A DNA stretch of 63,211 bases, the filler included, from Bonamia ostreae (taxonomy: Eukaryota): the NCBI GenBank assembly GCA_040357525.1. It is 14 parts of 14 records of this genome, joined end to end, with 100 filler letters (N's around TTAATTAATTAA, not from the genome) between each part and the next. Parts side by side here need not be neighbours in the genome. Positions count along the whole stretch, not along the records: positions 1 to 4,454 come from JBDODL010000308.1; positions 4,555 to 8,999 come from JBDODL010000309.1; positions 9,100 to 13,540 come from JBDODL010000310.1; positions 13,641 to 18,075 come from JBDODL010000311.1; positions 18,176 to 22,604 come from JBDODL010000312.1; positions 22,705 to 27,133 come from JBDODL010000313.1; positions 27,234 to 31,661 come from JBDODL010000314.1; positions 31,762 to 36,185 come from JBDODL010000315.1; 6 more parts are not named here. One strand, written 5' to 3'. Position numbers and translations under genes: made by a program. Numbering within the stretch: the first letter of the stretch is position 1; each line of letters opens with the position of its first letter. Positions 1,396 through 60,445 of this stretch are shown in pieces. The notes under the pieces were generated by a model. It was not told the origin of the DNA, did not search any database, and saw only the letters and a program-made list of their open reading frames with translations.

Positions 1396-3765
1396 ATGTC
1401 ATTTTCCGACCTGTTTTTTGCTTTGATAACATTTGTTAATTCTGGTCACCCCCAATATGGCAGTTTCAGCCAATATGACGGTTTTCATTTTGTAAAAACG
1501 TGAAACAGCCCATCCGTTTCCAATGGGATGGCCGGATAAAAACCAAAACGCAGAATATGTTTGCCAGCGGTATAATCGCAGATTGTGTTCATCAAAAGAT
1601 TTGGAAATTTTAGCTTACACCCAAAAAAGGGGGTTTTGTCTACTCGCATGGGCATTCGACATTCGTTTTAAGAAGGTTAGAGGCTTTTTGACGAACACTG
1701 AAAAAATGCCCTGTTTCTCAACAACGGGAGGAACTTATGAGTTGCCTCCGTATGGTCCGTTTCCACAAGTATTCTCATACACAAAAAATGTTCTCTATTA
1801 CATTTGCGTGATTAAACAATCTGAGAGAGAAAGAGAGTATGGTTTTTGCAAAAATTGGTTAAAGAATGCAGTGGAAACGGTTCTGATTATAATGGCTATC
1901 AATCGAAAACTGAAACCGGGGAAACCTGTCAATGGTGGGAGGTGCAGTATCCAAACAAACACATAGAAACTCCCGATAACAATGAAAATCCAGAATTTAA
2001 GTCTTTGCAGAAAAATTATTGCCGCAACCCTGACAATTCTGTGCGACCTGTTATTTGAGATAACTTTGTTGTGACAATAATTTAATAATTTTTATAGTTT
2101 TATGTTTGTTTGATAAATTGTAACAATGGCATATTTTAGTTCTAATAATGATTGTAACAATAATATATTATTGTTCTTTTTTAATTCTAATAATGATTGT
2201 AACAATAATATATTCTTGTTCTTTTTTAGTTAAAATAATGATTGTAACAATGATAATATTCTTGTTCTTTTTTAGTTAAAATAATGCTTGTAACAATGAT
2301 ATAAATTTAATGAAAAATAGTGGTGCTATCTTGCAAATAAATTAGGGAGAGAATACTGTGACATCACATGTAGTACATGTTTCAATTTTTTTAATAATTA
2401 TAAAAATGAAAAGTTGGAGATAGCAGTTTTTATTTGTAACAACGTTAAATCCTTTTATTTTCTATCGCCAAAACCATTTTTTTAGGCGGATTCTGTGAAA
2501 TGACGGTCTACGAATATCCTTATTTTTACGGGAAAAGCTGTACAAAAAATTTGGCTCTTGGACAATATGATATTTTCATGTTTAACAATCACGACGATTG
2601 CGACATGATTTTTTACACACAAATTCGCTCTTTCAAGGTAAGAGGCGATAGATGCAAAGCCAAAGTCTTTGGTCTTGACGGCCACAATGAGGATTTTTTC
2701 GGCAATGTTGACATCCCAGAATTATCATTGACAAACCTCACAAACCAGATCTTTTACGCTTTTCTATTTGAATTATCTGGTAACATTTAAATTCACACTG
2801 TTACAACAAAGCGGATGTAATCTTAACTACCTATTTTGATTATGTAAACAGAAGGAGTTTTGCGTATGATTATTCTTACTTGCACGTTTGTTCGTCAACT
2901 GAAGTCGACAACGGACTTAATATCGCCAAACTAGATTCGAACTCTCCAGATTTTGGTTGGGTGTATGAAGGCGAATGGACGATGTATTCCCACGAAAAAG
3001 TTACTCCGATGCCGGATAAAAAATCTTGGTGCTGTCTTGATGGTTTTTGATGAATGTTGTTAAATATGATTTGTAAAAATTTTGAAATAAGATCATTTAA
3101 AAACAAACTTGAAGATATTCAATTAAAAATTCAAAAAGAATTCCCAAAACTAACCGAAGAACTAGTTTATTCGAACGAGGCCTTTTCAAAATGCGCGGAA
3201 AAGACGAGGATAGCACCAACAGAACTGAGAGGAGTACAAATGGAATTCATTTATCGGCGAAGACTTTGCACTGTCAACGATTTGACTTCCCATTTTCACT
3301 ACAAAAACACAACTTTCGCAATGGGATTTGCTGCTTCAACGGAAAATGATGTCGTTTTGATTGGTAAAATTGGTGCAAATTTGGATGTTGTTACAAATTT
3401 GAATGGAAATACTCTATATCGCGTTTGGTGTTGTGATGAAGATTGTTATCCTGTTTTCTACCAATGCATTGAAGATAAAGATTGTTGTACTTTTAATTGC
3501 GTCAATAATATATGTGCTTGTTTTTGTTTAATTTTATAATTGATAATATTTTTGTTTGTTTTTGATTAAGAGATAAATCAAAATTTTTAAAGTTCCGGAA
3601 ACAACTGGTGGTGATGATGATGGAGAAAATGGCTCAGGGGAAAGAAAAATGGGTTTGTTGTCGAGAATAATTATTTTTTTGGTCGGTTTGTATTTTTTTG
3701 GTTGGATATTGAGATTTTGTTGTCCGAAAAGAAAACGGTTTGATCGACGCATTAAAATACATTGA
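1396..3765 (+). CDS. Modular type-I membrane protein: signal peptide, Link/CTL-like Cys modules, kringle, beta/gamma-crystallin-like domain, knottin-like domain, TM
   Basis: Kringle CSGNGSDYNG...GETCQWW...NYCRNPDNSVRP|WCY...EYCD. Crystallin-like TVYEYPYFYG...IRSFKV. TM LLSRIIIFLVGLYFFGWIL then RFCCP. Joined by GT-AG introns, e.g. 1842-1864. Confidence 0.8.
2117..2300. repeat. Intronic tandem repeat (~44-nt unit) inside the kringle-splitting intron
   Basis: taatgattgtaacaataatatatt...gttctttttta repeated about 4 times. Confidence 0.85.
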
Positions 3766-3915
3766 CAATTTTAACAGACAAAAATTTTTATTGAAAATAT
3801 CAAAAATCAATTGTTTTTTATCTACTAAATAAAAATGTGCAAAATTTAATAGCATTTTTCATACAAAATGATTTAAAAATTGTTATTTTAAAACTAACAA
3901 AAACGATTTATAAAA

Positions 3916-4454
3916 ATGTCAGATACCGATTTTGAAGTAAATCCAATTGATAACTTTATTTCAATGAACTCTTCTGATAGTTACAAATGCCATGATGCAA
4001 TTTGGTTTGTTGTATTTTTAGTCAATTTTACTGTGTTTTTGGCTTTTTCCATTTTCGCTTTTATTCAAATCGACCACTTTGCTTTCAAAAGTTCTGATTG
4101 GGGCAAGTTTATCGTTATCTTTGGTTTTATTTTGGAAAATAGAACATTAATTATTTATAATAATTGATAACAACAGAACATTCAAGTATTTATACTAATT
4201 GGTAACAATAAAGGAACAGTATACTTGCTTTCTCAAATCTACGGGATCCTAGCAATAATGACATTTTATTATCAACCAAAAGCATCAATAATCTTGAGTG
4301 TCGTCACATATTTTTTGAGCATAATAACATTTATAGTTGTTATGACAGTGAAAAATTTTGCAAAAAACGCTGTGATAATAATTTTTTCTGTCTTCTCGTT
4401 TTTTGTTTTGTTGTTACTGATTTTTTCTCTGTATAAACATTTTATCTTGTTAGC
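3916..4454 (+). CDS. Multi-pass membrane protein, choline transporter-like (CTL/PNS1) N-terminus, 3' partial
   Basis: YKCHDAIWFVVFLVNF resembles the CTL first-TM motif. Several further TM helices follow. Truncated at contig end. Confidence 0.45.
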
Positions 4455-4554
4455 NNNNNNNNNNNNNNNNNNNNNNNNNNNNNNNNNNNNNNNNNNNNTT
4501 AATTAATTAANNNNNNNNNNNNNNNNNNNNNNNNNNNNNNNNNNNNNNNNNNNN
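4455..4554. other. Artificial contig linker (N44-TTAATTAATTAA-N44); 13 in total, also starting at 9000, 13541, 18076, 22605, 27134, 31662, 36186, 40701, 45211, 49718, 54220, 58720
   Basis: Identical 100-nt spacer with stops in all six frames. Contig lengths fall from 4454 to 4392 and never increase. Confidence 0.98.
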
Positions 4555-4678
4555 TTCAAAAACGAAGCGTAGACATATCCACAAAGGAAGAAACGCAAAA
4601 AAGATTTGATCAAATCTTTATTGACTAAAAAACTACAATTTTGTTGAAATATAGATGAAACGTTAATTTAAATTTAGA

Positions 4679-4716
4679 AATCCCATAAATTTTTAATTTT
4701 TAAAAATTTTATATAT
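4679..4716 (+). promoter_or_regulatory. Candidate snRNA upstream element (TCCCAT) and TATA-like box
   Basis: aaTCCCATAAAT about 57 nt and tttTATATAt about 25 nt upstream of the U4 5' end. Resembles a plant-type USE/TATA arrangement. Confidence 0.35.
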
Positions 4717-4737
4717 TCGAAAGTTTGGGTTGACCGC

Positions 4738-4875
4738 ATCTTTGCGCAGGAGGCAATATCCAAGCGAATGAAGTTTTATACTGATGCTGGATTATTGCTA
4801 GTTGAAAACTACTCCAGTTGCCTCGGGCACCTGGGAAACCTAGTGCCCAATTTTTGTCAGCCAGTCCAACTGGCC
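4738..4875 (+). ncRNA. U4: U4 spliceosomal snRNA
   Basis: 5' ATCTTTGCGCAG, 5' stem-loop GCAATATC...AATGA...CTGA...GATTATTGC, TAGTTGAAAACT, GGGCAC/GTGCCC stem, Sm site AATTTTTG at 4849, 3' hairpin GCCAGT/ACTGGC. Confidence 0.95.
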
Positions 4876-5026
4876 TATTTAACGCATTTTAACTTTCCAA
4901 CTTATTATTTTTAAAATTGCAAAACGACCAATCTTTGAAAACAAAACTAAGCGTTTACCTAAACCGACGAAAAAATTTGAAATAAGCTAAATTTCCAATT
5001 TAGGAAAAACTATAATAATCGTTTCA

Positions 5027-5448
5027 TTAATAAAAAACCGCATCAACAATTTTTATGGGCGAATAAAAATCGTTTTGCAAGCTGCTTACCATTTTTCTAT
5101 ACAGCAAACTTTCTTTCCGAAGATAAAAATCTTCGTTGTTTTCTTTTTCGCCGTCCTTTATGTCAAGATTCTTAATTTTCGTCACAGTCTTTTCAAACAA
5201 ATCTGGAAAATTTGAGTCGATTTCTTTGTCCAGCAGTTTTAAAATATTGTCCCTTGTCGTTTTTTCGTTTGTTTTCGAATCGCTTTCGATTATTTTTATT
5301 ATACTTATTATTTCCTTGTTGCTATATTTTCTATATTGTTTATAAGAGCAAACTCGAAATTCTTTTCCAAAACACATTTCCTCATTTTTTCGTCTGTCGT
5401 CTTCAAACTCTTAGCCATTTTAGCTATTAAATGCTGACCACTTTCCAT
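5027..5448 (-). CDS. Small protein, possibly RNA polymerase II subunit RPB4-like
   Basis: Spliced MESEFEDD...MCFGKEF...SNKEI...LFEKT weakly resembles RPB4. The 3' end is uncertain. Confidence 0.3.
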
Positions 5449-5539
5449 TGACTTAATTAATATCTCTCAGTTTGTTAAATCTTTTATATATAATAGAACC
5501 AGAATCTTTAACCCGAAAATAAGCTCTTATCAGATAATA

Positions 5540-7088
5540 ATGGATCAATCCCAAAACGATAAAAAACAAAAACTCGTTATTGAGGGGAAAACAAAGATAA
5601 AAATCACTGAAAACAGCTTCTACAACGAAGCCCAAGTCTTGAACCGAGATTTGTCAGTAGCCGCCATTGCAACTTTCATAAAGTACATTCAAAAAAAAGA
5701 CGACATTAAGTTTAGGCGCAATTTTGAATTAAATGGCGACAAAATAAATTTCAAGAAAAAGGTCGTCATCGTCGACGGCCTAAGCGCAAGCGGTTGACTT
5801 TTTGTTCATTCCCAAAGGAATCCGCTCGATAAGATATGCGAACGAACTGGAGCCCAAAAAACACATCGAGATAATCGCAAATGACATCGACCCAAAATCG
5901 GTTCGTTTGATAAAGGAAAACTGTGATCTCAACAAGACCTCCGAACGCGTTCAAATTCGCAACAGCGATCTCAAGTTTTCTTTTGCACAGCAAAGCAAGT
6001 TTTTGCTGACCAATGAAGACGATCTCACCATTATCGATTTGGATCCGTACGGATCGGCAGCGCCCTTCATCCAAAACTCCCTCAATTCCATTCAAGACGG
6101 CGGCCTTCTCTGCGTTACTTGCACCGACATGCGAAACTTTGCCGGCCTGAACACCGGTTCGTGCTGGAGCCACTACAACGCAATGACCACGAGAGGCAAG
6201 TACTGCCACGAATTGGCGTTGAGGATACTGCTCGGGCACATCAGCAGAACGGCAAGCGGTCTGAAGAAGCACATCGTGCCGCTGGCTTCTTTCAGCATCA
6301 ATTTTTACGTTCGCGTTTTCGTGCGAGTTCTGAAATCGCCTTCCGCGGCCAACTCGAGTTGTCGGTTTTGTGTTCTAAAATGAAGCCAAAACGGACATGT
6401 TTTTGTTTGCAGCGACTGCGACTCTTTCAAGACACAGAGACTGGCTCGGATCAACGGCAACGGGGACATGAAACCGGTTCTGGTTGATCCGAACGCTTCC
6501 AAATGCGAAGTGTGCGCCGGGAGAAGAGAAGTTTTTTTCGAAATTTGCGATTAGATGATCGGGCCGATATGGTGCGACAGGTTGCACGACGAACTTTATC
6601 TCGAAGAATTGATCGGCCAAACGAAAAAACTCGATTTTTTGGAGCGGCAAAGCGAAGCGGTTTCTTTGGCTTCTTTGGCCAAAGCCGAAATCGAAGCGCC
6701 TTTTTATGTAAATCTGAGCGCACTTTCCAAGAAAATAAGATGCGGTTCGATTTCTAATAGAATGTTCGGGTTTCGATTTTCTAATTTGGAATTCAGTCGG
6801 GGAATCGTCAACAGCGGATACAGAATAAGCAGAAGTCACATAAAGCCCGAGTTCTTGAAAACGGACGCGCCGTTTTCTGTAATTTGGGCAGTTTTGATAA
6901 AGCACTTCGAAAACAGTCCTCCGAAAGAGGAAAACGATTTGATGCGAAAAATAAGATCGACAACGGAAGCTTTGAAAATCGAAGTGGATTTTGAAAAAAA
7001 GGGGGAAGAACTTATTCAAAAAGGCGTCTTCAAATTTTCGTGGCGCGGGAAAAGTTGGGGGCCGAAGAAAAAAATTAGACTAAATTAA
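5540..7088 (+). CDS. TRM1: tRNA (guanine-26 N2,N2)-dimethyltransferase
   Basis: FYNEAQVLNRDLS, DGLSASG|IRSIRY, IDLDPYGSAAPF, GGLLCVTCTD, HELALRILL, CSDC/CEVC, GPIW, GYRISRSH. Introns 5793-5817, 6365-6385, 6531-6554 and probably a 27-nt in-frame intron. Confidence 0.97.
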
Positions 7089-7246
7089 GTTGTTTCAAAA
7101 CTCGAAAAGTTAAAAAGAGACCAGAAAAGCAAATCTGTGAAAAGTGCTATTTAATAAAATGAGCACTCTTCAATGAGCACTCTTAAAAAAATTAGTTTAT
7201 TCAAAGATATTTTGGTAAAACAACAAATTTTCGTGATACAGTTTAT

Positions 7247-7642
7247 TCAATACTTCAAAGATATTTTCCGCATTAAAGCTGTGAAGTATTTTTTCATTTT
7301 CCCTAAGACACTTTTAGGAACAACTACTTCGATCAGATCGGACATTTCAGGGGCATTTTTGTCTGTGCTCAATGTGTTTTCTATCTCATTTTCTCGTCTT
7401 TTAAACGATTCTTCTCTTTTTTCTCGTCTTTTAAACGATTCTTCTCTTTTTTCTCGTCTTTTTAGTGATTCTTCTCTTTTATTTTCTTTTCTCTCTTTCA
7501 GTTCATCTTCCTTTTGTCTTTCGTAATACAAAAAATGTTCTTTTCGAATCCGCCAGTTGTATTCGTAATCTGAGCACGAGTCATATTTTTTATTGTAATA
7601 TGTTTTTTGGCGGCGCCCTAAAACGTTTTTTAGAGAATCCAT
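7247..7642 (-). CDS. Hypothetical protein with tandem KRREKREESF repeats
   Basis: ATG-initiated 131-aa ORF; 30-nt repeat about 3 times at 7390-7480. Confidence 0.55.
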   Translation of the reverse strand: MDSLKNVLGRRQKTYYNKKYDSCSDYEYNWRIRKEHFLYYERQKEDELKERKENKREESLKRREKREESFKRREKREESFKRRENEIENTLSTDKNAPEMSDLIEVVVPKSVLGKMKKYFTALMRKISLKY

Positions 7643-7899
7643 TTTATTTTGTTAAATGTTCTATGTCACTATTAATTGTGGTCGATTTTTCTTAAAATCG
7701 TTTTTGTTAATTGTGGATCAACTTTTTTAACATAATTTTTTCGATATTTTGCTTCAGATTTTTAAATTTATTGGTGTTAAAAAAATTAGAATTTTGCGTT
7801 TATTGTAAAATTTTGAATCGGAACTCTTCTCAAATTGTCTATGTTTATCGATCCGTCATCTATGAATGGGCGAATAAATATCGATCTTGAACTTTTTTT

Positions 7900-8999
7900 A
7901 GATTTTTGATTTTTTTTATCTTGAACTTTTTCTAACAACAAAAATTTGTTAAAAACTCAATAATCAAATGATCTTTTAACGACAAAATTCCTTCAAAAAA
8001 TTCTTTACTTTTAGCGAGAACAATAATCGTTCCTTCTGATAACTCTCTGACATCGTTTATATAACCATTTTCATAAGAAAATTTTTGCTAAATTTTTAGA
8101 ATAAAAAACGTCAAGTTCATTATTCAAAATTTCAATTACTTTTTCGATTGTTCCTTTATGCGAAATGTTTGATATTACTATTGGATATCCCGATTTTCTC
8201 TATTTTTTTAAATTTATTGCCAAAAAACAAAATTTTAAATTTTCGTAAAAAAATTATTCCGAAAATATTTTCGAAAAAATTTACGAAAAAAATATTTTTG
8301 AAAAAGCAAAATTTTAAAATTTAGTTTTCGAAAAATTATATTTTTGAAAAAGCAAAATTTGCGAAAAAAATATTTTCGAAAAAATTTGCAAATTTTAAAA
8401 TTGACATTTTCGGGTAAATCGCTATTAATGATGGCGTCTCTAGCGGTCCTCCAATCTGACCCGCCATTTTCAAAATTTTTTTGTCCCAATTTTGCGATTT
8501 TTGATTAAATTTTGTATTTATTTTTATCGGACTTTTACCCGAAATATTTTGCTGATTGTCAATTAAAAAGTTAGAAATGAGTTCTTTTGGAGCAGGAAAA
8601 ACATTTATTCGGAAATTTCTGTAAAATTTTGATTTCAAAACCCGAAAATCGATCCGTTTAAAGACAGAGCTGCGGACATTGCGGAATGTTCGTTCAAAAT
8701 GACGAGAATTGAGTTTTTTAATTGCGGCGGATTTGAAACGTTTTTTATCATTTCTTTTTGTGTTCCCATTTTTGTCTTAAATTTTGAAATTTAATAACAA
8801 TTTTTGTTCATTCGGAACAGAACTAATTTTAAATTTGTCAAAATTCAATTCGAAGAGAAACTTGAATATTGGAATTGAACCAGTCACCGATCGTTTGCAA
8901 TGTTAAATTGAAAGGCACATTTTCTACAATTATTCCTAAATTTCGGATATAAAATATAACCTGAAACCGGATCTTCGATTTCGCCGTTTACGATAACTA
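7900..8999 (-). CDS. Hypothetical multi-exon protein, 5' partial (possible RRM-like segment)
   Basis: Coding-like exons, e.g. GIIVENVPFNLTLQTIGDWF, interrupted by GTTT...AG introns. Boundaries approximate. Confidence 0.35.
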
Positions 9000-9438
9000 N
9001 NNNNNNNNNNNNNNNNNNNNNNNNNNNNNNNNNNNNNNNNNNNTTAATTAATTAANNNNNNNNNNNNNNNNNNNNNNNNNNNNNNNNNNNNNNNNNNNNT
9101 CGGAAAAGTCATTCACCATTCCCTCCTCTGAAGGATCCACTATAAAAAATTGCGGTACTAATCAAAAATTTAGCGGTAAAAATCCTCCTAAAAAATGTTG
9201 TTTTGACAAAACGGAATTAATCAAAAAATGTAGATCAATAAATTATCGTAAAATTATCCTAAAATAACTTAATCAATAAAGCTAAAAAATGTAGTTCTGT
9301 CGATTAGTTAGACGTCGAGTTAAAAGTTTTCTAGATAAAAATATAATAAATCATTTCAATAATTTATTGAATTGATGCAATATTTTTGATCAAATCGTTG
9401 CAAGATTTGATAACTAATTTTTAAAAGTTAAAAAAGTG

Positions 9439-11779: not shown

Positions 11780-11887
11780 TAATTTTTTATTATATCGGTT
11801 ATGCGAAAAAATATATATAATTTCTAAATTTCATATTTAGACACAATTTTTGTAACTTAAACATGTTCCTATATAAACTTAAAACAA

Positions 11888-20847: not shown

Positions 20848-22566
20848 TTATTGAAAAATGTCGCCTTTGGATGGCCCAAAAGCGATTTTTTTGAAATCCA
20901 GTTTTACTATGTTTTCGTCTGAAAAACTTATTTCTTTTAATTGGTCTTCGGTTTCTTCAGTAACGGCGACAACAAATTTTCCAGTTTTTCTAAAATCGCC
21001 AAAAGATTTTTTGATAATGGCGTTATGTCCGTTGACGCGAACAACAAAATTTTGGAAAACAGAAAATTTTGCGAAAGGCGAAAACATCTTTGAACAAATT
21101 AATCTGTTTTCCGATTGAATTCGTTCGATTTTGCCAGTTTTGGATTTGCTTTTGTAAATAGTTATTTTTGAAAATATTTCTTTTTCGTTTTCAAATACCA
21201 AATTTGGCGTTCCGTAGAATAGAAATCTAAACATTTGTCGATTAATTTTTTAATTCAACCTAAAATCAACACAATCTAAATCTAAAGCGACAATCGGAAA
21301 TTTTTCGTTGTAAATTATTTTTTTGTTGAAAGTCAACAAAACAAAAAATTTTTCTGTTTTGCAAAATTTCAATTTTTCTTTGTATAAAAAGGATTTTTTG
21401 TCATCCGGATAATTTATTCCTTCGTCGACTAAAAATCTTGGATTTGCCTTTTTTACAAAAAAATTAACAAGAAAATAGCGTCAAAATGTGCAAAAATGAT
21501 AAAATTGGAACATTTATGTTTGTGTATCCAGAATTAATATAAATTTTTTTCGTTGATTCAAATTCGGTGCGTTTAAACATTTTGACTTCCATTAAAACAG
21601 CTTTGACATTTTTAAAAATCTTATTCTTGGCCAAATATCCTCTTTCTATCTTTTCTGAATTAAGTCTATTTGTCAAAATTGCGATTCTGTCTCCTCTTTT
21701 CGCATTCTTTCAATTTAAAATTATTGAACCGGAACATTTTGATGAAATTTTTGAATCGATTTTACTTTCAAAAAAGCGTTTGGATTTGATTGAAAATAAA
21801 GTTTATCGCCAATTTTCACATTTCCGTCAAGAATAGTCCCCGTCAAAACAGTCCCTTTTCCTTTAACTCCAAAACAATGATCAAATGCCATTAAAAATTT
21901 TTCTTGTCTTTCGTCAAATTTTTCGCCGCTTCGATCCAAAAAGTGCCCATTTTCGCAAAAATTTGCTATTTTTTCCAAAATAAAATTCGAGATCTTCTCC
22001 TTTTCCGCCATTTCTTTATTTTTGTTGTTTCTGAAAACAGATTGAATCGCCAAAACATTTTTGCGAACATTTTTTCGCAAAAATAGTTTTGTTAAGGCTT
22101 TCTCGATTTTGGCCATTTTCGCTTTCAATACCTCTTCGTTAGCGAGCAGATCGACCTTGTTAAGAAAAAAGAAGAGAAAAAAGGGTCGGCCGTTTTTGTG
22201 CGCCATTTTCGACAACATTTTGCATAACGCAGAGCACTCCAAAGTTTGTCTTTGTATCCCTTCAACGATATCGATAACAATTATGGCGCCATCCACAATC
22301 TGAGCTCCGCCCATTATTGTTTTTATATAATTGGAGTGTCCTGGGCAATCCACTAAAGTTACTTGGACGCGTTCTTTGAGAAAGATTACCGACGAAAATC
22401 CCAAATCAAGCGTTATTTTTCTTTCTTGGGACTGATTGGATTTGTCGAACGCTGCTGTGGATTTGTGAGTGCTAATCAATTTCGACAAAGAAGTTTTCCC
22501 GCTGTCGACGTGTCCAAATAATCCGATATTTACGTTTGTTATTTGTTTTTTCGGGCTTTCAGTCAT
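20848..22566 (-). CDS. EEFSEC: Selenocysteine-specific elongation factor
   Basis: NVNIGLFGHVDSGKTSL, STAAFDK..QSQERKITLDLGFS, TLVDCPGH, DHCFGVKGKGTVLTGTIL, C-terminal YKSKSKTGKIER...GKF. Confidence 0.93.
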
Positions 22567-22704
22567 TTTGTGATTTATTGGTTTGTGTTAGTCGAAAATA
22601 AATTNNNNNNNNNNNNNNNNNNNNNNNNNNNNNNNNNNNNNNNNNNNNTTAATTAATTAANNNNNNNNNNNNNNNNNNNNNNNNNNNNNNNNNNNNNNNN
22701 NNNN

Positions 22705-40959: not shown

Positions 40960-43506
40960 TTATTTTCTCAAACAAACAACACACCCCAAAGAGTATTCAA
41001 CGCCATTGGGCGGGTGATCTACTTTAAGCGGACACGTCTCTTTCCCTTTGCACTATTTTTGCAAAAATCAAACTTTTGGCAGTTGACTAATTTTTTTCCT
41101 GCTCATACTTTTGCCCACCACTTGTTTCTTATGGCATTTGTCGCAAAAGTGCGTAGTGTCCCAGCAAAACCAGTTTGCTACGCCGCAACAAAATTTGCAT
41201 TTAAAAGTAATAAAGTCGTTTCCGTGGATTTCGCAACTTTTCGCGTTCTTCCCGGAAGAGCATGGTCCGCAAACCAAGTGAGATTTGTTGAACTAAAATT
41301 TTGTTGTTGCGATTTTTTGTTAACAGAAACGTTTTCAGAGACTTCGCGCAAAGCTTCTTCGCAATTCCTCATTCCTCCGAAATAAGGTTTTTCACATTTG
41401 CTGCAGAAATAGAAGGCAAACCGATGCATAGCGAATTCGTGCGGTCTGTTGTAGTAATGACTGTCTTTATTGCTCAATTTCGGGTCGTTTCTTAATCCTT
41501 CTAGATCTATTCTCTTTTTAATTTGAAATTTATCGCAAAAATGAACATTGCGATCACAAATTATTTGCAAAAACTTTAAACGCCATTTCGCGAATTTTAA
41601 GAAAGAAAGTTTTTTCCGTCTCAAAGACAGAACGCAAAGCTGGCTCCGACTTTAGATCCATTAATTTTTTGCACAGCGGGCAATTCAAATAACCAAACGT
41701 TATTCGAGCCGAAGGCCATTTTTTGTCCAATTTGGTCTTCACGCATTCCGAATGGAAAACGTGTCCGCATCCCAGAAGGACCACCGGAGCAGCCCCCAAC
41801 GACTCCACCCAACAAATTTGGCAAAAATCTTCACTCTTCACTTTAAGCTTCTTCTCGATGTGAGAAGCGCAATCTTCGACCAAACATCCCGGTCCTTTCT
41901 TCTCAGCGTGATTTTCCGTGCCCAAGCATCGATGCCCGCACGGAAGCTGTTCCTTGCACGAAATTTCGTCGCGCTCTCTGCACTCCTTTTTCGCGCAGAT
42001 CCCGTCGATCTGCGCGGGGACCAGCTCCGATTTGCACAGACGGCATTTCGGAGCAGCCCGGTAAAAGGAAAACTGTTCGCACGTTCTCCCTTTGTGGTAC
42101 GGCACCGAATCGCAAGAAGCGCAAAATTCGGTTTTGCATTGACTGCACCTAAAACGGTTTTTGACCAAATCACGACTCGCTTCTTCGGACAAAGCGACGC
42201 CGTTAAAAGTCTGAATCAACTCGTTTTCGTCGCCGTCCTCTTTATAGAAAGTGTGGCTGCACTTGGGGCAATTAATAAAAGAGTCGGATTTGGTCAAAAA
42301 CACCATTTGCTGCTCTGAAAACTGTTCGAGAAGATTGTTCTGTATGAACGAGCTGAAAAGCCAAGGCATTTCTGCGTTACAGCCATTTTTCAAACATTGC
42401 AATTTGTTGTTTTCGTAAAACTTTTCTTCGATTCTTCGAATTAACGTTTCGCTGATGCAAAATTGACAAGTTTTGTGTTCACATTTATTCTTTTGTTCAA
42501 CGTTTTCGTAACAAGATAAAACCTTTATCAGCGCTTCTTCGATCATTTGGCGGTTGCAAACAGCGCATTTTAATGTTTCGTTTTTGTTGTGGAATTTGTC
42601 GAAAGGGATTTGCGGTTGGTTTTTTTGTTGGCTATTTTGGTTTTTTTTGCCAATGTCGTCATCGTGTTTGAATATTTTGTCAAAATGCGCGTTTTGGTTG
42701 TTTTGTTTTTTCTGCTTTTTGGCGGTTTCAATTGTTTTTTTGTTCCGATAAAGTTGCCTTCCAAAAATTTCTTCGTTTATTATTTGGTCATTTTGTTCGG
42801 AAACGGAAACCGAGCCATTTTCGTTCATGTCGTTTCCTCTTTCGATGATATCCGTGTTATTAGTTTTAGAATCTCCGACTATCGGATTTTTCTTATTTGG
42901 CAATATTTTATGATCTAATTCATTAATTTCTAAAAGATTTTCTTGTTTCATTTGGTCCTTTTTAATCGGTTCGTCGATCAAATCAAATTTTTTGCGAAAT
43001 TGGTTAAATCCCTTTTTAACATTTTTTAGATTGTTTGAATTGGAACGTTTAGAAAAAGTTTTATGTCGTTGTCGATTTTGTTATAAAGATTTTTGTTGCT
43101 GCAATGGAAATCTTTGTCCTTTTTAATAACGATATCGCGGATACCTTTCATCGCTAATTTTATTTTTCTCAGTTCTTTCTCCAATTGTTTATAATCAAAT
43201 CGACTTGTTTTTAGGTTAGAAACTTTTGTTCTTCAGTTGCGTCAGTTTTCATTTTTCCCATGATTTTTGGGTTTTTGTTATCTTTGTACGAAATTTTAGT
43301 TTGATTTTTATTATATTCCGAAAATCCGATTTGTCTTATAGATCGGATTTTCGCCAAAAATGTGATAAACCTTTGTTTGAAATGGCCGGCGAAGAGTTTT
43401 TGTTTGGCAGCGAAAGACATAAATCGATATGCTAAAATTGAATTAATTGAACCGGTTCCAGTTCGTTTATCGGAAAGCTTTTAGAGCAAATCGGACATTG
43501 ATTCAT
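40960..43506 (-). CDS. E3 ligase: UBZ - RING/IBR-like - MYCBP2-type RING-Cys-relay module
   Basis: MNQCPICSK...HIDLCL; RFRCSQCKTEFCASCDSVPYHKGRTC; DFCQICWVESLGAAPVVLLGCGHVFH; PYFGGMRNC; FKCKFCCGVANWFCWDTTHFCDKCH; CPLKVDHPPNGVEYSLGC. Confidence 0.88.
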
Positions 43507-49965: not shown

Positions 49966-50500
49966 TAAATATTGTTTTAATCATTTTATTTATAAAAATG
50001 GCAAACATAATTTTTGCAATTTTATAAATTTTACAAAATGAATATATTCTCGAGTCTAAACTCTTTTTGGAGATTATTTTGTAAAACAAAAATTGTTTTT
50101 AGTGGCAATTTGAGTTTATCAAACTGTTTTTTAAGAAAAGCATTTTATAATTTTTGCATTTTTAGACATTGATTTTTTATAATAATACAAACTGTTTTTT
50201 GCATTTTATCTGATTTTTCCGTTTTTATTAAATTTTTAGACATTGTTTTAGTTGGAATAAATAGCTGTAAAAACAGTTTTTTAATGTTATTTTTTGAAAA
50301 TTTTAAAATCTTTTTAAAACATTTTGTCCATCATTTGGGATCAAAATTCATTAAAAATATTTGAAATATAAAATTTGGATAAAAATAGGCGGATATAAAA
50401 TTTGGATAAAAATCACAACGAAAAAAGAACAAAAAAATTGTAAAAATACCGAAGATTTTATAAAATAGAGTGCATAATAAAAATATAAACAACCGATCAC

Positions 50501-51817: not shown

Positions 51818-52136
51818 ATTGTATTTTGGTATTAGCCATTTTTCGCATTTACGATCGTAATTTAATAACGTGCAAAAATTTTGCAGAAAGTTGTTTCTGC
51901 AAAAATAAGTTTATATGCAAAGCTTCTTTAGTGATATATCGAAATATCTTAAACATGAAAAATCATAATAGAAACCCGAATAATGGCAACATTACAAAAA
52001 CTGATTAAAATTTTCCACGGGTTTAATAAAATCTCTCATTGCCATTTTTCAGCCGAAATTGAAATGTAATTGATAAAATTTAATGAAAAATGTTTAACAA
52101 AAATGCAACTTTTTAACAAAAATGTTTTTGTGTAAT

Positions 52137-54219
52137 CTATTCGTTTAATATTTCATTAACATCTTTAAACAATGCTTTAACAATCGCAGATTCGCCAGAA
52201 AAAGTTTTTGAAATATCGCCCGATTGAAAAACAATGTCATTATCAGTTTTCAATCGAACCGAAAGTTCTCTGTCTATTTTGAGAGCAGAAAATTTTTCTT
52301 GATCCGTTTGATCGGTCCAGATTATCTCGTTGTCAACAATTTTCAATTCGACTCTTTTACCCTTTTTCATAAATTTCCGTTTCAAAATTAATGAGTACGG
52401 ACCTAAAAGTCTTTGTTTTTTCAATGTATTTGAATACGACGAGTTGTTTTTTTCAGTCGAAGTCTTTTTTTCTTTTCTGTTTTTTGACAATTCCAGGAAA
52501 CTTTTGGCTATTCCATTTTATAAATATTAATAAAAATTGACATTTTCAGACAACAAAAATAAAACTTAATTTCGCTGGTGACTTTTTATTAATTTGAAAA
52601 AACCAGTAAACGTTGCATTTTAGACGAATAAGATTTCTTTTCGATTCTAAGACCATTTTTTGCTTTACTTTTAGCTTAATTTCAAAACGGGCTAAAGAAG
52701 AGTTTAGACTGTTTTTGTTCTCCAAAACTCGACGTTTTCAAAGAAACCAACAACATGGCTTTGCTGGGACTATCCGAAAATTGGTTTAAATCGGTCGAAC
52801 TGGAATTCTTGTTTGCGAAGCCGTCGTTTTCAACCATTTCGATCTCGTTTTGAAAACTCGAATTCGATCTCGATTTGGATGGCAAAGAGTTCGATGGCTT
52901 CATATCGTCGTTTTCAGTGGCTAAATCGGTGTTATTGAAAATTTTGCTGTCAATTAGTTGTTCTTGGCCTTCTTCAGCCAATTCTATCCATTGCTCTCGC
53001 CATCGGAGTTGATTTTTGAAATCGACTTTGAGCTTGATCAAACCGAGGAGAATATTGACATTGCCAGAAATGCTGTTGAAAACTTTGAATTGCAGCTCAA
53101 ACGAGCTCTTCTTCGTAGAATATTCAAATTGTTCTTGCCAAACCGGAGAAGAACATTTTTCTATTATTCTTGTCTAATTTTTGATTAAAATAATTTTTCG
53201 TTTAAATTTTTTATTTTTTCAATTTTTATCGTTTATTTTTTATTTTTTCGACTTTTTTCGTTTTATTTTTTCAATTTTTATCGTTTTAATTTTTTCATTT
53301 AAATGTTTTTATCAATTTTTTTTCATTTTTTCGTTTTATCAAAATTTTCGTTTTTAGATTTAAAATTTTGTAAAGTTTTTATTTAAAACAGATTTTGTTT
53401 CGTTTTCGTTGAGAACAATAGAGACAAAAGTATTGAGTTCGTCTGTGGACGTCGTCAATTTTGAAAGATGGATTCCTCGCAGTACATTAACTACTAAAAG
53501 GTTCTGATTCCTATTCTTTATTTTTTAATTTTATTGGTTGTCAAATCTGAAAAACAGCTTTGGCTCTCATGTCAAATTCATTTTGAGATTTGGCATTTAA
53601 AGGCTCTTTCAAATTTTTCGAGTAGAATATTTTCTTTTTCCTTAAAATTTTGAAGTTAATTTTGCATAAATCTAAAATTTTTCCTGATCATTTTTCGCCA
53701 ATTCCAATCAAAAATTTTTAATTTTTTTTGTGATAAAAATTCAAATTTTAAAAACTCGGCCAAATTTATGATTTGCGAGTTGATGGCTATTTTGATTCGG
53801 CCAGATTTGTTTTCTTTCGTGTTTTTGAGAAAATGCCATTGTTCTTCTTCGTTTTTATTGAAAAGAGAGAGCCCGTCTTCGTCTAGAAACTTTATTTTTG
53901 ATTTCCCGATAATGCGATTTTTAGCGTCGAAAATAAAAATGGTCAATTCCTTGGTTGCCAAGAATGGCAGTTCCACTTGGAATTGTTCGTTCCAATATGG
54001 TTTGCTTGTCCTAGGACGCAGTTTTGTCTAATTAGTTAAAATTTAGTCTAATCAGATATTTTTTCAAATTTGAAACTCTCAAGACAAAATCAGATATTTG
54101 AACATAAGCTCTGATGTCTGGAAGACGTGTTCCTAATGGAACAGATATTTCTTTTGCTCCGATGATCTTTAGTGTTACCAAATGGATGCTTGGGACTCCG
54201 TCTCTTAACGAAAATATGT
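52137..54219 (-). CDS. Multi-C2-domain protein with PH-like C-terminus, 5' partial
   Basis: TSKPYWNEQFQV...LTIFIFD...IIGK...WHFL...GRIKIAI and a second C2-like block. Confidence 0.65.
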
Positions 54220-54633
54220 NNNNNNNNNNNNNNNNNNNNNNNNNNNNNNNNNNNNNNNNNNNNTTAATTAATTAANNNNNNNNNNNNNNNNNNNNNNNNN
54301 NNNNNNNNNNNNNNNNNNNTTGCAATATTAAAATTTTTCTGATCAAATTTTATTGTTTAATTTCGCAAAAGTTTTGATTTGTTTGTAATATCAGTTTTTA
54401 GACGAAATTTATCGTTTGAATTAGAACGAGATAAATTTTTTACGACACAAAAAAGTTATAAGATAAAGACGTTTGACAATATCCATTTTAAACTATTACA
54501 ATATACGTGATTATAAAGCCTATTTAGGAAATTCGATAATGATGATGATTATATAATGTCGCCAAAAACGATAAAATTTTATGTTTGTCTAAAACTATTT
54601 AAGCGTTTCAATATATTACAGTGAAGCTCTAAT

Positions 54634-55031
54634 TTAAACCTTATCCAACAATGGCGTGAGCCAGCGTGGATTAAGAAAGGTTTTGTTATACTTGAAGAAG
54701 AGCATCAACAGACGGAACAACAGAACTCTGTTTCCGTCTGTTTCCACGTTCCAGTAAAAGAGCACTCTTTTGACCGCTTCTTCGAATTGCGACTAAACCT
54801 TTCAAATTGAACCTTTTTGTTTTTGACGGCCATTTTCGACTTGTCGAGGACGTCCATCAAAATCTTCAATTTGTTCACTTGGTCGGAAAAGGTCGTGAGA
54901 CTAAATTGCTCTCCGTTTTGTCTCAGTTGAGTCATATAGCTCCCAGTTCCTCTGATCGATTTTTTAAGTAACCTTGCTCGGGGATACGCGTCCCGTCCGA
55001 TATTGGGATTGTTGTAGAAATTTCTATTCAT
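54634..55031 (-). CDS. Hypothetical protein (two or more exons)
   Basis: ATG ORF joined by a 20-nt intron to SQFEEAVKRVLFYW...PRWLTPLLDK. Confidence 0.55.
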
Positions 55032-55640
55032 TTAGCTAACTAATTGATAAAATTTAGGATAATTTTATATTGCGATCGCTAAGCTAAGCCTCGACAAAGC
55101 GAAGAGGGTTAAGTTTTTAAAAAAAATTTAAGTTTTAGCTTTTTCTGCTTGTCGAGTTAAAGTTTTTCGAATTTAAAGTTCTAACGCCATTAAAATTTTT
55201 GTGGTTAAATTTTATAAAAGGAATTTTAATAAATTTTATCAATCATTCCATCTTTAGGAAATTTTATTTTGGCGTTTGCACAACCGCAATCATTAATAAA
55301 TATAAACCGTGCCACATTTATTTTTTATTTTAAGACAACGACGAAAGAAAGGAATTTTTTAACTTTATTTTTTATTTTTGACATGTCTTTTTTATTTTTG
55401 TCATGTCTCTTTTATTTTTTATTTTTGTCATGTCTCTTTTATTTTTTTTGTCATGCCAACTTCAATCATTAAGAAAATTTTACTTTAAATTATTATTTTT
55501 GTTTTGAATATTATTAAATCGTCGACAAATCAATAAAAGCGAATAGATGTAACAACTATTACAATGAACTATTTTTAAATGAAGAATTAACAAATTGAAA
55601 TAAAAAGAATTGGCAAATTGTTCAAAATTTATTTATTTTC

Positions 55641-56400
55641 TCACAAAACGCTCTTTTTAGATCTTCTCTTTCTCCTCCGTTTGTACATCTTCACAAAAAT
55701 CACAAGTACATAAAATATAACAACAAATCCAACTGACGCAAGCGCTATTATCTTCAGCAACGTCAGTTCTTGATAATTTATTCAATTAATTCATTCTTAA
55801 AATGATAAATCGCCAAAGCAGTTAATTCAATTAAAAAAACTGCAAGATTTCTTAGTGAACTCATTTGAAAAATCTTTGCCATTCCAATACCACCATTTTC
55901 CCTTGCCACATTGAATTATCTGCACAGATTCATCCGAATTACATGTTACTTTCATTTGATAAGTCTGATGGAACTTCTTTTTCAACAGTCCAACCTCCAT
56001 TTTTATGTCCAATTTTTCCAGCGGGTCGATTCCACACGATCCATTGTCCGCTTTTCTTAATTTAATTTAAACTCGCACAGGCCATTTTCGCCGCAGAGAC
56101 TTCTCCATATTTGCTTTGGAGTATGGAGTCGTCGCAATGCGCCAAAATGTAATTTCGAAGGATGTGTCCACCATTCATGGCAGGGATTTTAATCATCGAA
56201 TGTTCCCCAATGCATTCGATTAAGCGCATGTCACCGTCTGATAATACGTTCACATACGCATTTGCATTTTCTTTCGACGGATAGACTCTAGCGATCCGCA
56301 TCGAAGAGCCTAATTGATACAGTGAGCATTGTCTTCCTGGGGGTACGACAATCGAGATTGTGGCGCACAAGACGCGAAGAAACATTATTAATAATATCAT
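55641..56400 (-). CDS. Type-I membrane protein with two 4-Cys Sushi-like domains (copy A)
   Basis: Signal peptide; GSC...VTC...IQCGKGKWWY...SC; TM IIALASVGFVVIFYVLVIFV and basic tail; phase-1 introns. Confidence 0.8.
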
Positions 56401-56547
56401 TGTTGGTTTGTATTTTTAGTCGTTTAGGTAATAATTTAAACCTTCGATTATTGGTTTTAATTCTTCAATTTAAAAATTTTAATAAAGTGCGCGGTTTCGA
56501 TTTTGTTTTTGCATGGAGGTAAAAATAATAAAATGAATGCATATTTT

Positions 56548-57535
56548 TCAATAAAATGGTTTATTCGATTGGTTTTTACGTTTGTTTCTGCAGCGTTTCT
56601 TGTACGAGTGCTTTAACTTCTTTCTGAAAACGTAAACGATGCAGAAGACTAAGTTGACGAAAAAGGCGACGATGATCAATTTTGTTGCTAAAATTGAATT
56701 TATATACCTTTCGGCAGTTCTTTTGTTTTGATATTGTTAATGGATGGACGGTTCGATAAAATTTACGAAAAATTATATTTACTGACAACAAAATTGATTT
56801 TATTCAATATTATGAGCGGATAAAATTTTCGACTAAATAAAATATTTTTTGAAACGAAATTTAAAATTGATTAAGAAATAAAACGACAAGTTTTCGATTT
56901 AAATTCTAAAATTTCATTTTTTTTGGCCGAATAGAACCATTTTCCGTCACGACAAAAAATTTCCCATTTCTTTCCATCCGATTTACAATAAACTATTATT
57001 TTTGAATTCTGTTCAAATTTTTGGAACAAATACCCAATTTCAAAATTAACGGGAGCTTTAATATCCTTCTTCCTACACGAACCATGTTCAACTTTAATTT
57101 TCTAATTACAAACATTGATAATTGTAACAATGAAAATTTTTAAACAACAAATATTAATTTTTTTAAAGAAATTAGATACAATAACGTTAAATCAATTACT
57201 AAACACGAAAAATTTATAAAATATAATCAACGTTTACAGTTAAAAGAAAGATCAGTAACATTTCCAAAATCTGCGTTTTTGAGAAAACCATTTTCGCAAA
57301 CTGTCATTAAATAGTTTTTGCTTTTGTTTGTTGGTAACACCAACATGTTTTTTTCTCCTCTGCACTCTATATAACGCAAATCTCCTTCATAAAGTTTTTT
57401 TGGCTGCAACCTCAATAGTCCACCTAAATAAAAATCAGCGATGCCGATGTCATTACCGAGTTCAAACAAATCACAATAGCACATTACTTTCGTAAACACA
57501 AACAGTACTGGTAGAATTTTTCTGAAAACGACCAT
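56548..57535 (-). CDS. Type-I membrane protein with two 4-Cys Sushi-like domains (copy B)
   Basis: Aligns with copy A (GD.R.IEC.GE, NY....C, GSC, VYC.SD, C.DGKWFY); TM LIIVAFFVNLVFCIVYVF. Confidence 0.8.
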
Positions 57536-57827
57536 TTATTTTTTCAACTTAACGTTACTGTTTTTCAGTTTTTTAAATAATTAATTTGAGTGTCGGTAAT
57601 AAATTGTTTATGGCCATTTCAAAATGTCATTATGTTCAATTTTAAAAACATAATTTAAGTGTTTTCAAGTTACATTTTCTAAACAAAATTGTGCATCATT
57701 ATTTAAAATTATTTTATTGATAAATATAAGTTTCACTAAATTATTTATTTGGTATAGCACAAGCTATTACCTAATCTTTTTACTTTTTCTACAGCGAAAA
57801 TATTAACTCTACAATTTTATAAAATAA

Positions 57828-58076
57828 ATGGCAGAAGCACCAGAAGTGATAGATTATTGGCACGATTCGGAAAATTTTCATTCGGAAGGTCTTTTGGGTA
57901 AATATAATGATGATCAATATCAAATTTTCGTTGAAAGAACAACTTCTGATGGCAGAACATGTAATTTTACAATCATTATTGTCTCAAACTAAAATCCTTA
58001 TTCAATCTTAATTAATAAAATCTATATAAAAGTGTTGAATTTATACGGCGAATCAGAGGAGGACAAAAAATTTTAA
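57828..58076 (+). CDS. Small acidic hypothetical protein (~58 aa, two exons)
   Basis: MAEAPEVIDYWHDSENFHSEGLLG...GRT|LLNLYGESEEDKKF*. Confidence 0.4.
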
Positions 58077-58819
58077 GTGATCTCAGATCAAAATTTGAAA
58101 ACTTCAAAGACTGTTCCTTTGTCCCAAAAATTGTTGCTTTTACTAAGAATATTCTTATGTTGAACGACGTCCAAGGATTGTCACTAACTGTTATTTTGAA
58201 AAAAATTCAAATTCGAATTACAGATTTGAGTTTTATATATTTTTTAGAATTTAGAATACAAATTTTGTATTTTTTGTCGTAATCAAGTTTGTTAAACAGC
58301 TTAAGTTTTATATAAACACAATAGATTACATAATGCTAGAATTGGTTGAAATAGTGTTAAAAATAAACAAAAGAAATTATTTTTTGTGTGATCTATCGAC
58401 AGATAAGATATTTTTGTGTACAGATGGAACAGTTTCTATGCCAAATTTGGTTTAAATCAGTCAATTTATTTAAATTTAGAGTGATTGCGTTAAATTGGCT
58501 GTGGTAATGAAACCAGAGCTATTTTATGTCGCAAAAGTCATAAGATCGATCGTCTCCAAAAGCGGCTATAATGATTTACTTTCAGCAGCAATCCATATCG
58601 AAGAAAATAGAAATGAGCCTAATTATTTTGAAAATTTGCACCGCATTTTGTGAATAAGCGAAAACGGCGAGAATATGTATGAAAAAACGGCCGATTTTCC
58701 AAAATACATATTTGACTCANNNNNNNNNNNNNNNNNNNNNNNNNNNNNNNNNNNNNNNNNNNNTTAATTAATTAANNNNNNNNNNNNNNNNNNNNNNNNN
58801 NNNNNNNNNNNNNNNNNNN

Positions 58820-59958
58820 AAATAATTAACTTGAGACCAGTCAATGGAAACTATATCTGATCGATGCCCTTTCAATGTTCTGATTGGGCTTTTGCCAAAA
58901 AAATATCTATTCACTTTTTTCAGTTTCTGTAAAATAAAGTATGTATTATGCTCAAAATAAAAATGTAACGACAATGTTAAAAAGATTGTTTTAGATGCGT
59001 TAAATTTATACACGGAGCAATTAGAATTTTAATAAGTTTTTGTATACGCTAATTCCAAAAACTTTGATATCTCCATCCACGATGTCACCATAAAAATATT
59101 CGATATTGCTTTGCGCCAAATTTTTAGCTTTTAAAATCTGGTTATTTAAAAATGCCCCCATTACAATCCAGACATTAATCTTCATATCTTTTCCCGCTGT
59201 AGCGAACAAATCCCCTTTTACAGAAAACTTTGAGCACCAAATAGGACCAGAATGTCCTTTTATTACTTGAACACATTCTAAGCCATTTAATAACTTTTTA
59301 ATTGTATTGTCACATAATGAAACGCAATTTAAATATTTGAAAAAACTTTTTTCTTTGTTTTGAATGTTTTAACGGTATGATAATCTTCAAACGCTTCATT
59401 ATTTTCCTCGTTGATTAAAGTGTTGGAACTTGACTTTGTTTTTTATTACTTTTTAAAACATTTTTTTGCTTGTTTTTGACATGTTTTTTAAGAAAAGAGA
59501 ACGGAGACATTGTCTTTTCAAATTCCAATAACTAAATTAATATTTTTTAAACATCTTCCATATTCTTCGGAAAATTTTTATTTTTTTCGGTGCTTCTACA
59601 TATTGTGTTATTAGGCAATGTCTTTGAATTGCTTAAACAAAAATTTATTACAATAAATCAGTAGTTAAAAACGATATCAATATTTAGTAACAATAAAAAT
59701 AACGATATAAATTTTGTAACAAAGAATAAACCCAATTTTGTAGGAACTCTTTCTTTTTGGACAAGAAACAAATTTGTCTTCTCCCTTGATTTTTGGAATC
59801 GGGGAACAGAACATTCTGGAAAGAGAAGAAGACAAACAAGAGCTCTTATCTGTCGAATATTCATTGCTTTCAAAATTTTTTGCCTTAGAATTTGTTTCGT
59901 CTTTTATAAATTCGTTTGCTACTTCGTAATATTCCATCGGTTCGTTATTTTTCAACAT
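58820..59958 (-). CDS. WD40 protein, WDR44-like, 3' partial
   Basis: QVIKGHSGPIWCSKFS..GDLFATAGKD..INVW; PIRTLKGHRSDIVSIDWS. Confidence 0.75.
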
Positions 59959-60138
59959 TTTCTAATTTTGTTAAGCTTCTTTCTATTTTTTATTACGATA
60001 GTTTTTTATGGTTTCAATGTCGTTTATTTTATGATTTTCTAAATTGTTGTTTGGTGTTTTATTAAATTAATCTATTGCACAGGGAAAACAGGCGAAAAAT
60101 ACAAAGAAAACTGATTGGAAGTTAAAATTTATTTTAAA

Positions 60139-60445
60139 TTATTTATTCAAATTCGCTCTCAAGATTTTGGAATAGTCTTCAAAGTCTAGTTTTTCTAGAG
60201 CTTGTAAGATATCATCAACATTAAGCGTCTTGTAGCGACCTTTTTTACTTATTTCGGCGGCTCTTTTTTGAAAAATCAAACTCGGCACAGACAAATCCAA
60301 TAAACTCAGTCAAGAAAATTTGCAGGCGTTTTTTGGCTTTTTCGCTGATCGAATATTTCAGTGGTATCACATTTCTCACGATTTTATCTATTGTTGCTAT
60401 TGGCAACTTTAGTTCCGACTCGTAAATAACTTTTTCATCTGCCAT
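60139..60445 (-). CDS. Histone-fold protein, NF-YB / NC2-beta (Dr1)-like
   Basis: LPIATIDKIV, TEFIGFVCAE|AAEI, KTLNVDDILQALEKLDFEDY; 19-nt intron 60263-60281. Confidence 0.85.

Follow-up and report, generated by a model that had tools for sequence, protein, structure and literature searches.

The DNA analysed here, a 63,211-nt stretch of the Bonamia ostreae genome (hereafter, the window), consists of contigs of ~4.5 kb joined via N spacers, has a GC content of ~30%, and carries protein-coding genes interrupted by introns of roughly 20 nucleotides (nt) as well as a conventional U4 small nuclear RNA (snRNA) gene behind an snRNA promoter (Table 1). A sequence-only reading of the window had described dozens of 19-35-nt GT-AG introns that begin with GTT rather than GTRAG and have no polypyrimidine tract, a U-rich 5' half and an A-rich 3' half; it had proposed that the halves pair and that length and structure define the introns, with altered U1, U6, and U2AF. 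We examined these introns together with the U1 genes that may read their donors. The B. ostreae assembly comprises 10.3 Mb in 7503 contigs. Intron statistics were compiled from 787 kb, i.e., the window and, from each of the 80 longest contigs, at most the first 10 kb (~8% of the genome in all), with a motif-blind gene finder that knows GT..AG only and uses a flat length prior. From 1143 predicted introns, 1126 in genes of at least 80 aa were retained, 764 passed a flanking-exon filter, and 546 of 18-45 nt formed the final set, leaving out 22 shorter introns (14-17 nt, unverified predictions) and 196 longer ones.

Tiny introns and their signals

The tiny introns of B. ostreae, roughly 20 nt in length, are genuine. 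RNA support came from contigs of run X1 (presumed RNA) on L050:1-9908, a contig other than those of the window. All 13 gaps of intron size there (one 1-nt gap excluded) were GT..AG, 12 starting GTT and 1 GTA, with lengths of 18, 19, 20, 20, 21, 23, 25, 28, 29, 31, 73, 73, and 323 nt; the shortest intron supported in this way lies at L050:8881-8898 (18 nt), and a GTAA donor was verified at L050:3384-3411. Runs X2 and X3 yielded no splice joints. The gene finder agreed exactly with the RNA at 11 of the 13 gaps and recovered 381 of 516 introns exactly in simulated genes. In a null simulation with random introns it returned 35% T at +3 and a flat length profile, with no GTT bias and no length or A peak.

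Within the window, the finder predicted 62 introns of ≤45 nt, 54 of which start with GTT and 46 of which are 19-35 nt long, in agreement with the sequence-only reading. The five introns that it had singled out, namely those of Table 1 outside the TRM1 gene, were each verified in position and strand and read GT...AG. In the TRM1 gene, one exon is 100% identical to an annotated B. ostreae protein, the next matches being at 39-49%. If the intron of the protein disulfide isomerase gene is left in, the reading frame stops at 28602; the spliced frame, read by hand, ends in KKEL-stop, which resembles an endoplasmic reticulum retention signal. At 60263..60281 the finder preferred a 43-nt form with the same acceptor, against which the PF00808 match speaks.

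Table 1. Introns and snRNA genes discussed in the text. Positions without a prefix are those of the window; MFE, minimum free energy.
Feature	Position	Strand	Evidence and remarks
23-nt GTTTT..AAG intron	1842..1864	+	Joins upstream frame to kringle exon; Pfam kringle from residue 2 of next exon; finder-predicted; MFE 0
snRNA upstream element, 15-nt motif	4678..4692	+	Exact in U3, U4, U5 and both U1 genes; TATA box 17 nt further (before U4)
U4 snRNA gene, conventional	4738..4873	+	Rfam RF00015, 94.4 bits, E 5.8e-20
TRM1 intron 1, 25 nt, GTT donor	5793..5817	+	Removal yields annotated B. ostreae protein P0001; finder-predicted
TRM1 intron 2, 21 nt, GTTTT donor	6365..6385	+	Consistent with P0001; finder-predicted
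TRM1 intron 3, 24 nt, GTTTT donor	6531..6554	+	Consistent with P0001; finder-predicted
TRM1 intron 4, 27 nt, in frame, GTTT donor after exon G	6770..6796	+	P0001 against sequence; missed by finder
20-nt GTTT..AAG intron, DUF2009 gene	25802..25821	-	Flanking exons match PF09418 positions 360-408 and 410-455; finder-predicted; MFE 0
19-nt GTTTT..AAG intron near 3' end of protein disulfide isomerase gene	28595..28613	+	Not finder-predicted; MFE 0
21-nt GTTT..TAG intron, RING/IBR gene	41053..41073	-	Finder-predicted; flanking exons without Pfam match; MFE 0
19-nt GTTT..AAG intron, NF-YB-like histone-fold gene	60263..60281	-	Flanking exons match PF00808 positions 2-41 and 44-65; MFE -2.2 kcal/mol
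Variant U1 gene	L001:766-925	-	Rfam U1, E 2.7e-10
Canonical-arm U1 gene	L113:1560 to contig end	+	Found via promoter motif; arm ACUUACCUG
U2 gene	L002:368-514 (G000:C951)	-	Weak score (E 0.17), exact core with GUAGUA

Across the 546 introns, donors began with GTT in 456 cases, GTA in 59, GTC in 17, and GTG in 14, and only 2 carried the GTRAG consensus, as had been claimed. GTTT opened 333 and GTTTT 176, so the donor is not near-uniform. Compared with intergenic GT..AG decoys (47%), T at +3 was strongly over-represented (84% of introns, p 1.7e-68), the corresponding frequencies being 64% at +4 and a weak 46% at +5. Intron lengths showed a sharp lower edge at 18-19 nt and a peak at 19-20 nt (2 introns of 18 nt, 68 of 19, 115 of 20, then a tail; mode 20), which bears out the part of the earlier proposal that invoked length. 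As to the A-rich AAAG/ATAG ends, AAG (275) and TAG (168) did outnumber CAG (87) and GAG (16); however, AAG is barely above background (50% vs 43%). The lack of a pyrimidine tract was confirmed, with pyrimidine fractions at -12..-4 of 0.52 and 0.48 vs 0.51 in decoys. The 787 kb, in which the finder models GT..AG and not AT-AC, yielded no convincing U12-type intron.

An A at -8 or -7 was present in 251 of 305 short introns vs 58% of decoys (p 2e-19). It tracks the 3' end in 19-21-mers, and the bases around it loosely fit UNAY. This A is probably the branch point, judging by comparison with Stentor, E. invadens, myxobolids, and Dicyema. The change from U-rich to A-rich composition is also real, since U/A polarity in introns of 18-23 nt was 0.34, and the skew proved weaker in intergenic decoys (0.07), a check that the sequence-only reading had itself called for. 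After removal of +1..+5 and the last 9 nt, however, polarity fell to 0.055±0.045 and 0.017±0.032. Since it vanishes on trimming of the donor and 3' positions, the polarity consists of two local signals, a U-rich donor and the A at -8/-7, rather than being spread over the two halves.

Two U1 genes behind one promoter motif

The 15-nt element upstream of U4 had 29 matches genome-wide at ≤1 mismatch, vs 2 for the reversed motif. The five exact matches precede U3, U4, U5, and two U1 genes, each with a TATA box 15-17 nt on, so that U3, U4, and U5 are linked to the motif in one copy each and U1 in two. Element and TATA box together (window 4678-4715, L001, L020, L111, and L113) form a plant-like snRNA promoter, with the start 44-46 nt downstream, and the motif recovers snRNA genes missed by Rfam. 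It also places a U3 small nucleolar RNA gene at L111:887-1063 (-) and, by promoter spacing, gives U5 a 5' extension of ~30 nt with a hairpin.

One of the two U1 genes, the variant, scored 47.4 bits, under Rfam's cut-off of 69.5, and has the arm CAAAACAUC instead of ACUUACCUG. It retains the U1-70K loop GAUCAAGAAG, a U1A-type loop II with one change (AUGGCAC), an Sm site, and stem IV. Its predicted fold is the U1 four-way junction (z -2.17; 5 of 200 shuffles equally good), and its GC content is 57% vs ~30% in its surroundings. By promoter spacing, the RNA would start GCAAAAC or AAAAC, which fits a donor signal ending at +5. Positions 4-6 of this arm (AAA, facing +3..+5) were the best of 64 trimers at separating donors from decoys (area under the curve, AUC, 0.725), whereas the canonical CUU trimer ranked 44 of 64. 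Similarly, Watson-Crick pairs at +3..+5 with the variant arm averaged 1.94 in introns vs 1.24 and 0.97 in decoys; with the canonical arm the mean was 0.41. A metagenome scan for U1 with an AAAAC arm gave 23 stretches, of which 20 were scanned with Rfam; one is a U1, and we read the rest as chance matches. That single-copy metagenome U1 (L175:58-126, -) has a conventional core unlike Bonamia's (96 bits) and an AAAAC arm before CUGG.

The idea of a single rewired U1 as the sole U1 gene was dropped once the promoter search revealed the second, canonical-arm gene, and thus the predicted alteration of U1 holds only in part: a U1 with a changed arm is present, and one with the canonical arm is present as well. 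The canonical-arm gene has an exact arm and an exact loop II, a deviant loop I that retains UCA, paired stems, and a GC content of 56%. A standard Rfam search misses it because the contig end cuts the gene. The two U1 RNAs align as paralogs.

Donor classes and their proposed readers

Donors fell into two classes that differ at the last exon nucleotide. G occupied exon position -1 before 28 of 176 GTTTT donors (16%), compared with 150 of 339 other GTT/GTA donors (44%; odds ratio 0.24, p 4e-11). The contrast held in the 18-23 nt, 24-45 nt, and non-3n subsets; in controls, the odds ratio was about 0.7 for decoys and the null simulation gave 11/42 vs 75/334. About 42% of GTT donors other than GTTTT followed G, and GTA donors, which read GTAA in 49 of 59 cases, did so most often (58%). 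Relative to background, GTAA stood at 0.82, GTAT at 0.18, GTAC at 0.26, and GTAG at 0 (GTAA vs GTAT, p 5e-5). The classes are alike in genes, GC levels, lengths, and branch-region A. GTT and GTAA donor words occur together in one RNA contig (L050, record 3) and in 30 of the 35 loci having GTAA, and both are found at all gene GC levels. Scored by pairing energy, the better of the two arms gave an AUC of 0.705, vs 0.658 and 0.554 for single arms.

We propose that these are U2-type spliceosomal introns shrunk to ~20 nt, in which length and three short signals, instead of structure, would define the intron. The first signal would be a donor read by either of two U1 small nuclear ribonucleoproteins (snRNPs). 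The variant arm, 5'-(GC)AAAAC-3', could pair with GUUUU at +1..+5 with no need of help from the exon, and the canonical-arm U1 (ACUUACCUG) would read GUAA donors and donors that follow an exon-terminal G. A branch A at a distance of 7-8 nt from the 3' end, within a loose match to UNAY, would be the second signal, read by U2 with a normal GUAGUA box. The third would be an AG located by its distance, where 0-2 pyrimidines remain for U2AF65. What looked like a U-rich start and an A-rich end would then be donor and branch signals lying side by side. We put the probability that two U1 snRNPs share donor reading, each serving its class, at about 0.5; this reading presumes expression of both U1 RNAs, the division of labour between the classes, and the branch A. 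That the variant takes part in GUUU reading is likely, since it does so both in this reading and in a full replacement of U1, itself an improbable outcome, and is idle only if the canonical U1 reads all donors, which is improbable too. Somewhat short of even is the chance that the snRNPs are interchangeable and that the arrangement is a change caught midway, in which a duplicated U1 with an AAAAC arm took over most (GUUU) introns, the ancestral U1 serves GUAA and G|GU, and duplication avoided a lethal intermediate.

Several observations weigh against two readers. The canonical-arm gene is cut by the contig end after 116 nt, so any Sm site would lie beyond the sequenced part; the gene scores weakly with Rfam (E 0.05), the fragment is no more stable than its shuffles (z +1.05), and loop I is deviant, with an insertion in stem I. 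A search for its 3' part found no overlapping contig (6 matches vs 7 in the control, only the gene itself exact). The 546 introns are predictions. The variant arm predicts U at exon -1, which is instead depleted (17% vs 32% in coding decoys; 19% for GTTTT), the canonical arm predicts G at +5, found in 1 of 59 GTA donors, and GTAA is tolerated rather than enriched. The -1 G contrast is absent among predicted introns longer than 45 nt (16/58 vs 35/112) and is not significant in the window alone (3/11 vs 8/23). The AUCs for donor discrimination are modest, and a chance run of A is plausible in an AT-rich genome (~4% for AAA by our own estimate). U6 was not found by Rfam at E 0.001 or E 10 (48 of 1323 candidates scored), by three patterns, or among all 29 promoter matches, an absence that proves nothing in a fragmented assembly. 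Finally, anticorrelation between exon-end and +3..+5 strength has been described, in the accessible part of that study, for species that have one U1, where U5 and U6 are held responsible (10.1101/2022.04.05.487178).

Considering the last point, the variant could be the only working U1, a full replacement of the kind put forward for Entamoeba, the canonical copy being in decay or otherwise employed and the compensation at -1 G coming from loop I of U5, which is canonical here. The predominance of U at +3 and the lack of selection for +5 G suit such a replacement, as do the deviant loop I, insertion, and unseen 3' end of the canonical copy and the published U5/U6 precedent. Yet that copy retains an exact promoter, an exact arm and loop II, its elevated GC content, and paired stems. 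Moreover, GTAA is kept and GTAT depleted, the reverse of what a lone AAAAC reader, which would prefer GTAT, predicts, and a GTAA donor is RNA-verified on L050. We therefore regard full replacement as unlikely.

An equally doubtful alternative makes the variant a bystander and lets the canonical U1 read every donor by pairing with the exon and by U-U or pseudouridine-U contacts, aided by an altered U6 or by a U-binding protein, for which proteins of the TIA-1/Nam8 type are candidates. A canonical-arm gene does exist, the ~42% of non-GTTTT GTT donors that follow G would be served by it, and METTL16 is retained (see below). According to the available portions of the respective papers, several lineages changed their donors without changing U1 (Roy and Bowser, 10.1101/2022.06.08.495308) and most human variant U1s have little splicing activity (PMC10870369). 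Against this, the canonical arm fails to separate donors from decoys by paired length (AUC 0.50), GTTTT donors lack an exon G to pair with (16%, near background), and the variant keeps A7-C8, its promoter, its fold, and its Sm site, its positions 4-6 having changed to the best of 64 trimers.

There is a slim chance that the assembly mixes two organisms, each contributing one of the U1 genes, or that the variant is a derived U11 of the minor spliceosome. The assembly is indeed fragmented, its stretches range from 26 to 45% GC, and a U11/U12-35K-like gene is present. However, both U1 genes share their exact promoter with the single U3, U4, and U5 genes, tiny GTT or GTA introns are predicted in genes of both U1 contigs, and the donor classes are independent of GC. 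A U11 arm presumably bears a GG that pairs with the U12-type donor, and the variant arm has none; Rfam's within-clan comparison also favours U1, and the two RNAs are paralogs by alignment. The long stem-loop I of the variant, with its 70K-type loop, likewise differs from that of U11, which is described, in the part of the source available, as much shorter, the 35K site of U11 being on SL3 (10.1101/2023.12.22.573053).

Least credible is the proposal that pairing between a U-rich and an A-rich half draws the two splice sites close to each other, a model of intron definition rejected on the evidence of four shuffle and chimera controls and of intergenic decoys. Three of the controls were shuffles (interior, end-preserving, and half-wise), and the fourth consisted of chimeras that joined halves taken from separate introns. 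Introns of 18-23 nt had a mean MFE of -0.28 kcal/mol, i.e., slightly worse than all four controls (-0.32 to -0.38), with an MFE of 0 in 69%, and those of 24-45 nt were level with the controls (z -0.4 to -1.05). Polarity is genuine, one of the five singled-out introns folds (60263..60281), and 44% of 24-45 nt introns lie below -1 kcal/mol; yet shuffles reach 42-43% on that measure, decoys fold better than introns (z +4.8 and +5.9), the other four examples do not fold, and swapping halves between introns has no effect (z +1.0 and -0.46). Polarity, moreover, is lost on donor and branch trimming. The stable pairing that joins intron ends in nonconventional introns of euglenids was not found. Since folding equal to shuffles was the outcome that the sequence-only reading had named as refuting it, neither its self-complementary introns nor the structural half of its length-and-structure model is supported.

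The nearest parallel to two U1 snRNPs sharing the donors is Entamoeba, where GUUUGU(U) donors go with a co-evolved U1 arm, 5'-AACAAAC-3'; the Mastigamoeba arm is ACGUAC (Roy and Bowser, 10.1101/2022.06.08.495308). In what is available of that work, Entamoeba resembles Bonamia in having U at +3/+4, a U1 arm changed to A opposite these positions, and, in E. invadens, a branch A ~8 nt from the 3' end. It differs in keeping +5 G and +6 U and in having few introns and near-uniform signals, and no second, canonical U1 is reported there. Bonamia, unlike Entamoeba, has a weak donor with no +5 G, many introns of 19-25 nt, and a canonical-arm U1 beside the variant; the U1 arm is thus complementary to an atypical donor in both, with neither a uniform donor nor replacement of the canonical U1 in Bonamia. 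Because the two belong to different supergroups, the changes are independent. Ultra-short introns are known from Stentor (15-16 nt; PMC9505925), Mikrocytos (16-17 nt; PMC10245619), and myxobolids and Dicyema (PMC13644364). As far as the available sections of these papers go, this group shares with Bonamia a tight length limit, a branch A or a brief run of A close to the AG, a pyrimidine tract that is slight or missing, U2AF, and a canonical U2 branch box. Unlike Bonamia, Stentor has GUA donors and a canonical U1 (PMC9505925); no U1 was identified in Mikrocytos (PMC10245619).

Human variant U1s are, like Bonamia's, encoded by paralogous genes beside the canonical U1, but the accessible text puts them at <0.001% of U1, with few affecting splicing (PMC10870369), whereas the arm of the Bonamia variant matches the donor word that predominates in the genome. 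U6 and U5 have also been described as setting two classes of 5' splice site, //GURAG and AG//GU, and in the portion available their exon-end and +3..+5 strengths are anticorrelated as in Bonamia (10.1101/2022.04.05.487178); the intron-side word here is UUU, not RAG, with a matching second U1. The Ascetosporea genome paper terms Bonamia introns canonical, and its main text, as available, does not contain the word snRNA (PMC11069148), which matters for annotation, given that Rfam finds only the variant U1. In a literature search conducted mostly without subscription papers, we found no report on Bonamia splice signals or U1 and no pair of canonical and rewired U1s each matching a donor class. 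The pair of U1 genes is the new part; short length, an A-rich end, and a missing tract are also seen in other lineages with tiny introns. On the question of how a splice signal used throughout a genome can change in step with its reader, Entamoeba, the most direct case, offers the end state only, judging from the part of the study available (10.1101/2022.06.08.495308). With old and new U1 side by side, each matching a donor class, a duplication route becomes testable across haplosporid genomes and RNA data, and a two-U1 genome may show how a splice code is rewritten via gene duplication.

Other splicing components and neighbouring genes

U4 is normal, as had been stated, and U5 is present with a normal loop I. 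The U2 gene has a stem-loop I enlarged by an insertion of ~24 nt, 2 extra nt ahead of the branch box, and GCC for GCU in helix Ib, and no snRNA upstream element lies within 400 nt of it; the gene may represent a variant copy, or its features may be adapted to the tiny introns. Loss of U2AF65 was rejected, since a gene for it, encoding RRM2 and UHM, lies on a cut contig. Loss of METTL16 is a conceivable cause of U at +4, and this too was rejected, since the gene is retained. Among 21 of 27 RRM loci examined, plus 3 more, there was no true copy of U1-70K or U1A. A U11/U12-35K-like gene lies at L148:217-903 (G000:C105, ~6116-6802; +). Its N-terminal exon matches only that protein in PDB (E 0.27), its RRM exon ties between 35K and U1-70K, and its first two introns have GTAAAA donors; we take its tail to be 35K-like. 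The supplement of the genome paper records, in the part available, a gain in an orthogroup tagged U1 snRNA binding, also for M6MM (PMC11069148), which may only reflect the 35K gene and was given no weight.

Elsewhere in the window, a kringle-domain gene (1496-2058) and three short, clustered, cysteine-rich genes whose starts resemble signal peptides (55600-57535; similar families in L027, L030, and L039) possibly encode surface or secreted proteins. The segment 31761-32560 is GC-richer than its neighbours and has long overlapping frames. Lastly, an elongation-factor GTPase is encoded at 20848-22587 (-), which we take to resemble the selenocysteine-specific factor, suggesting selenoproteins.

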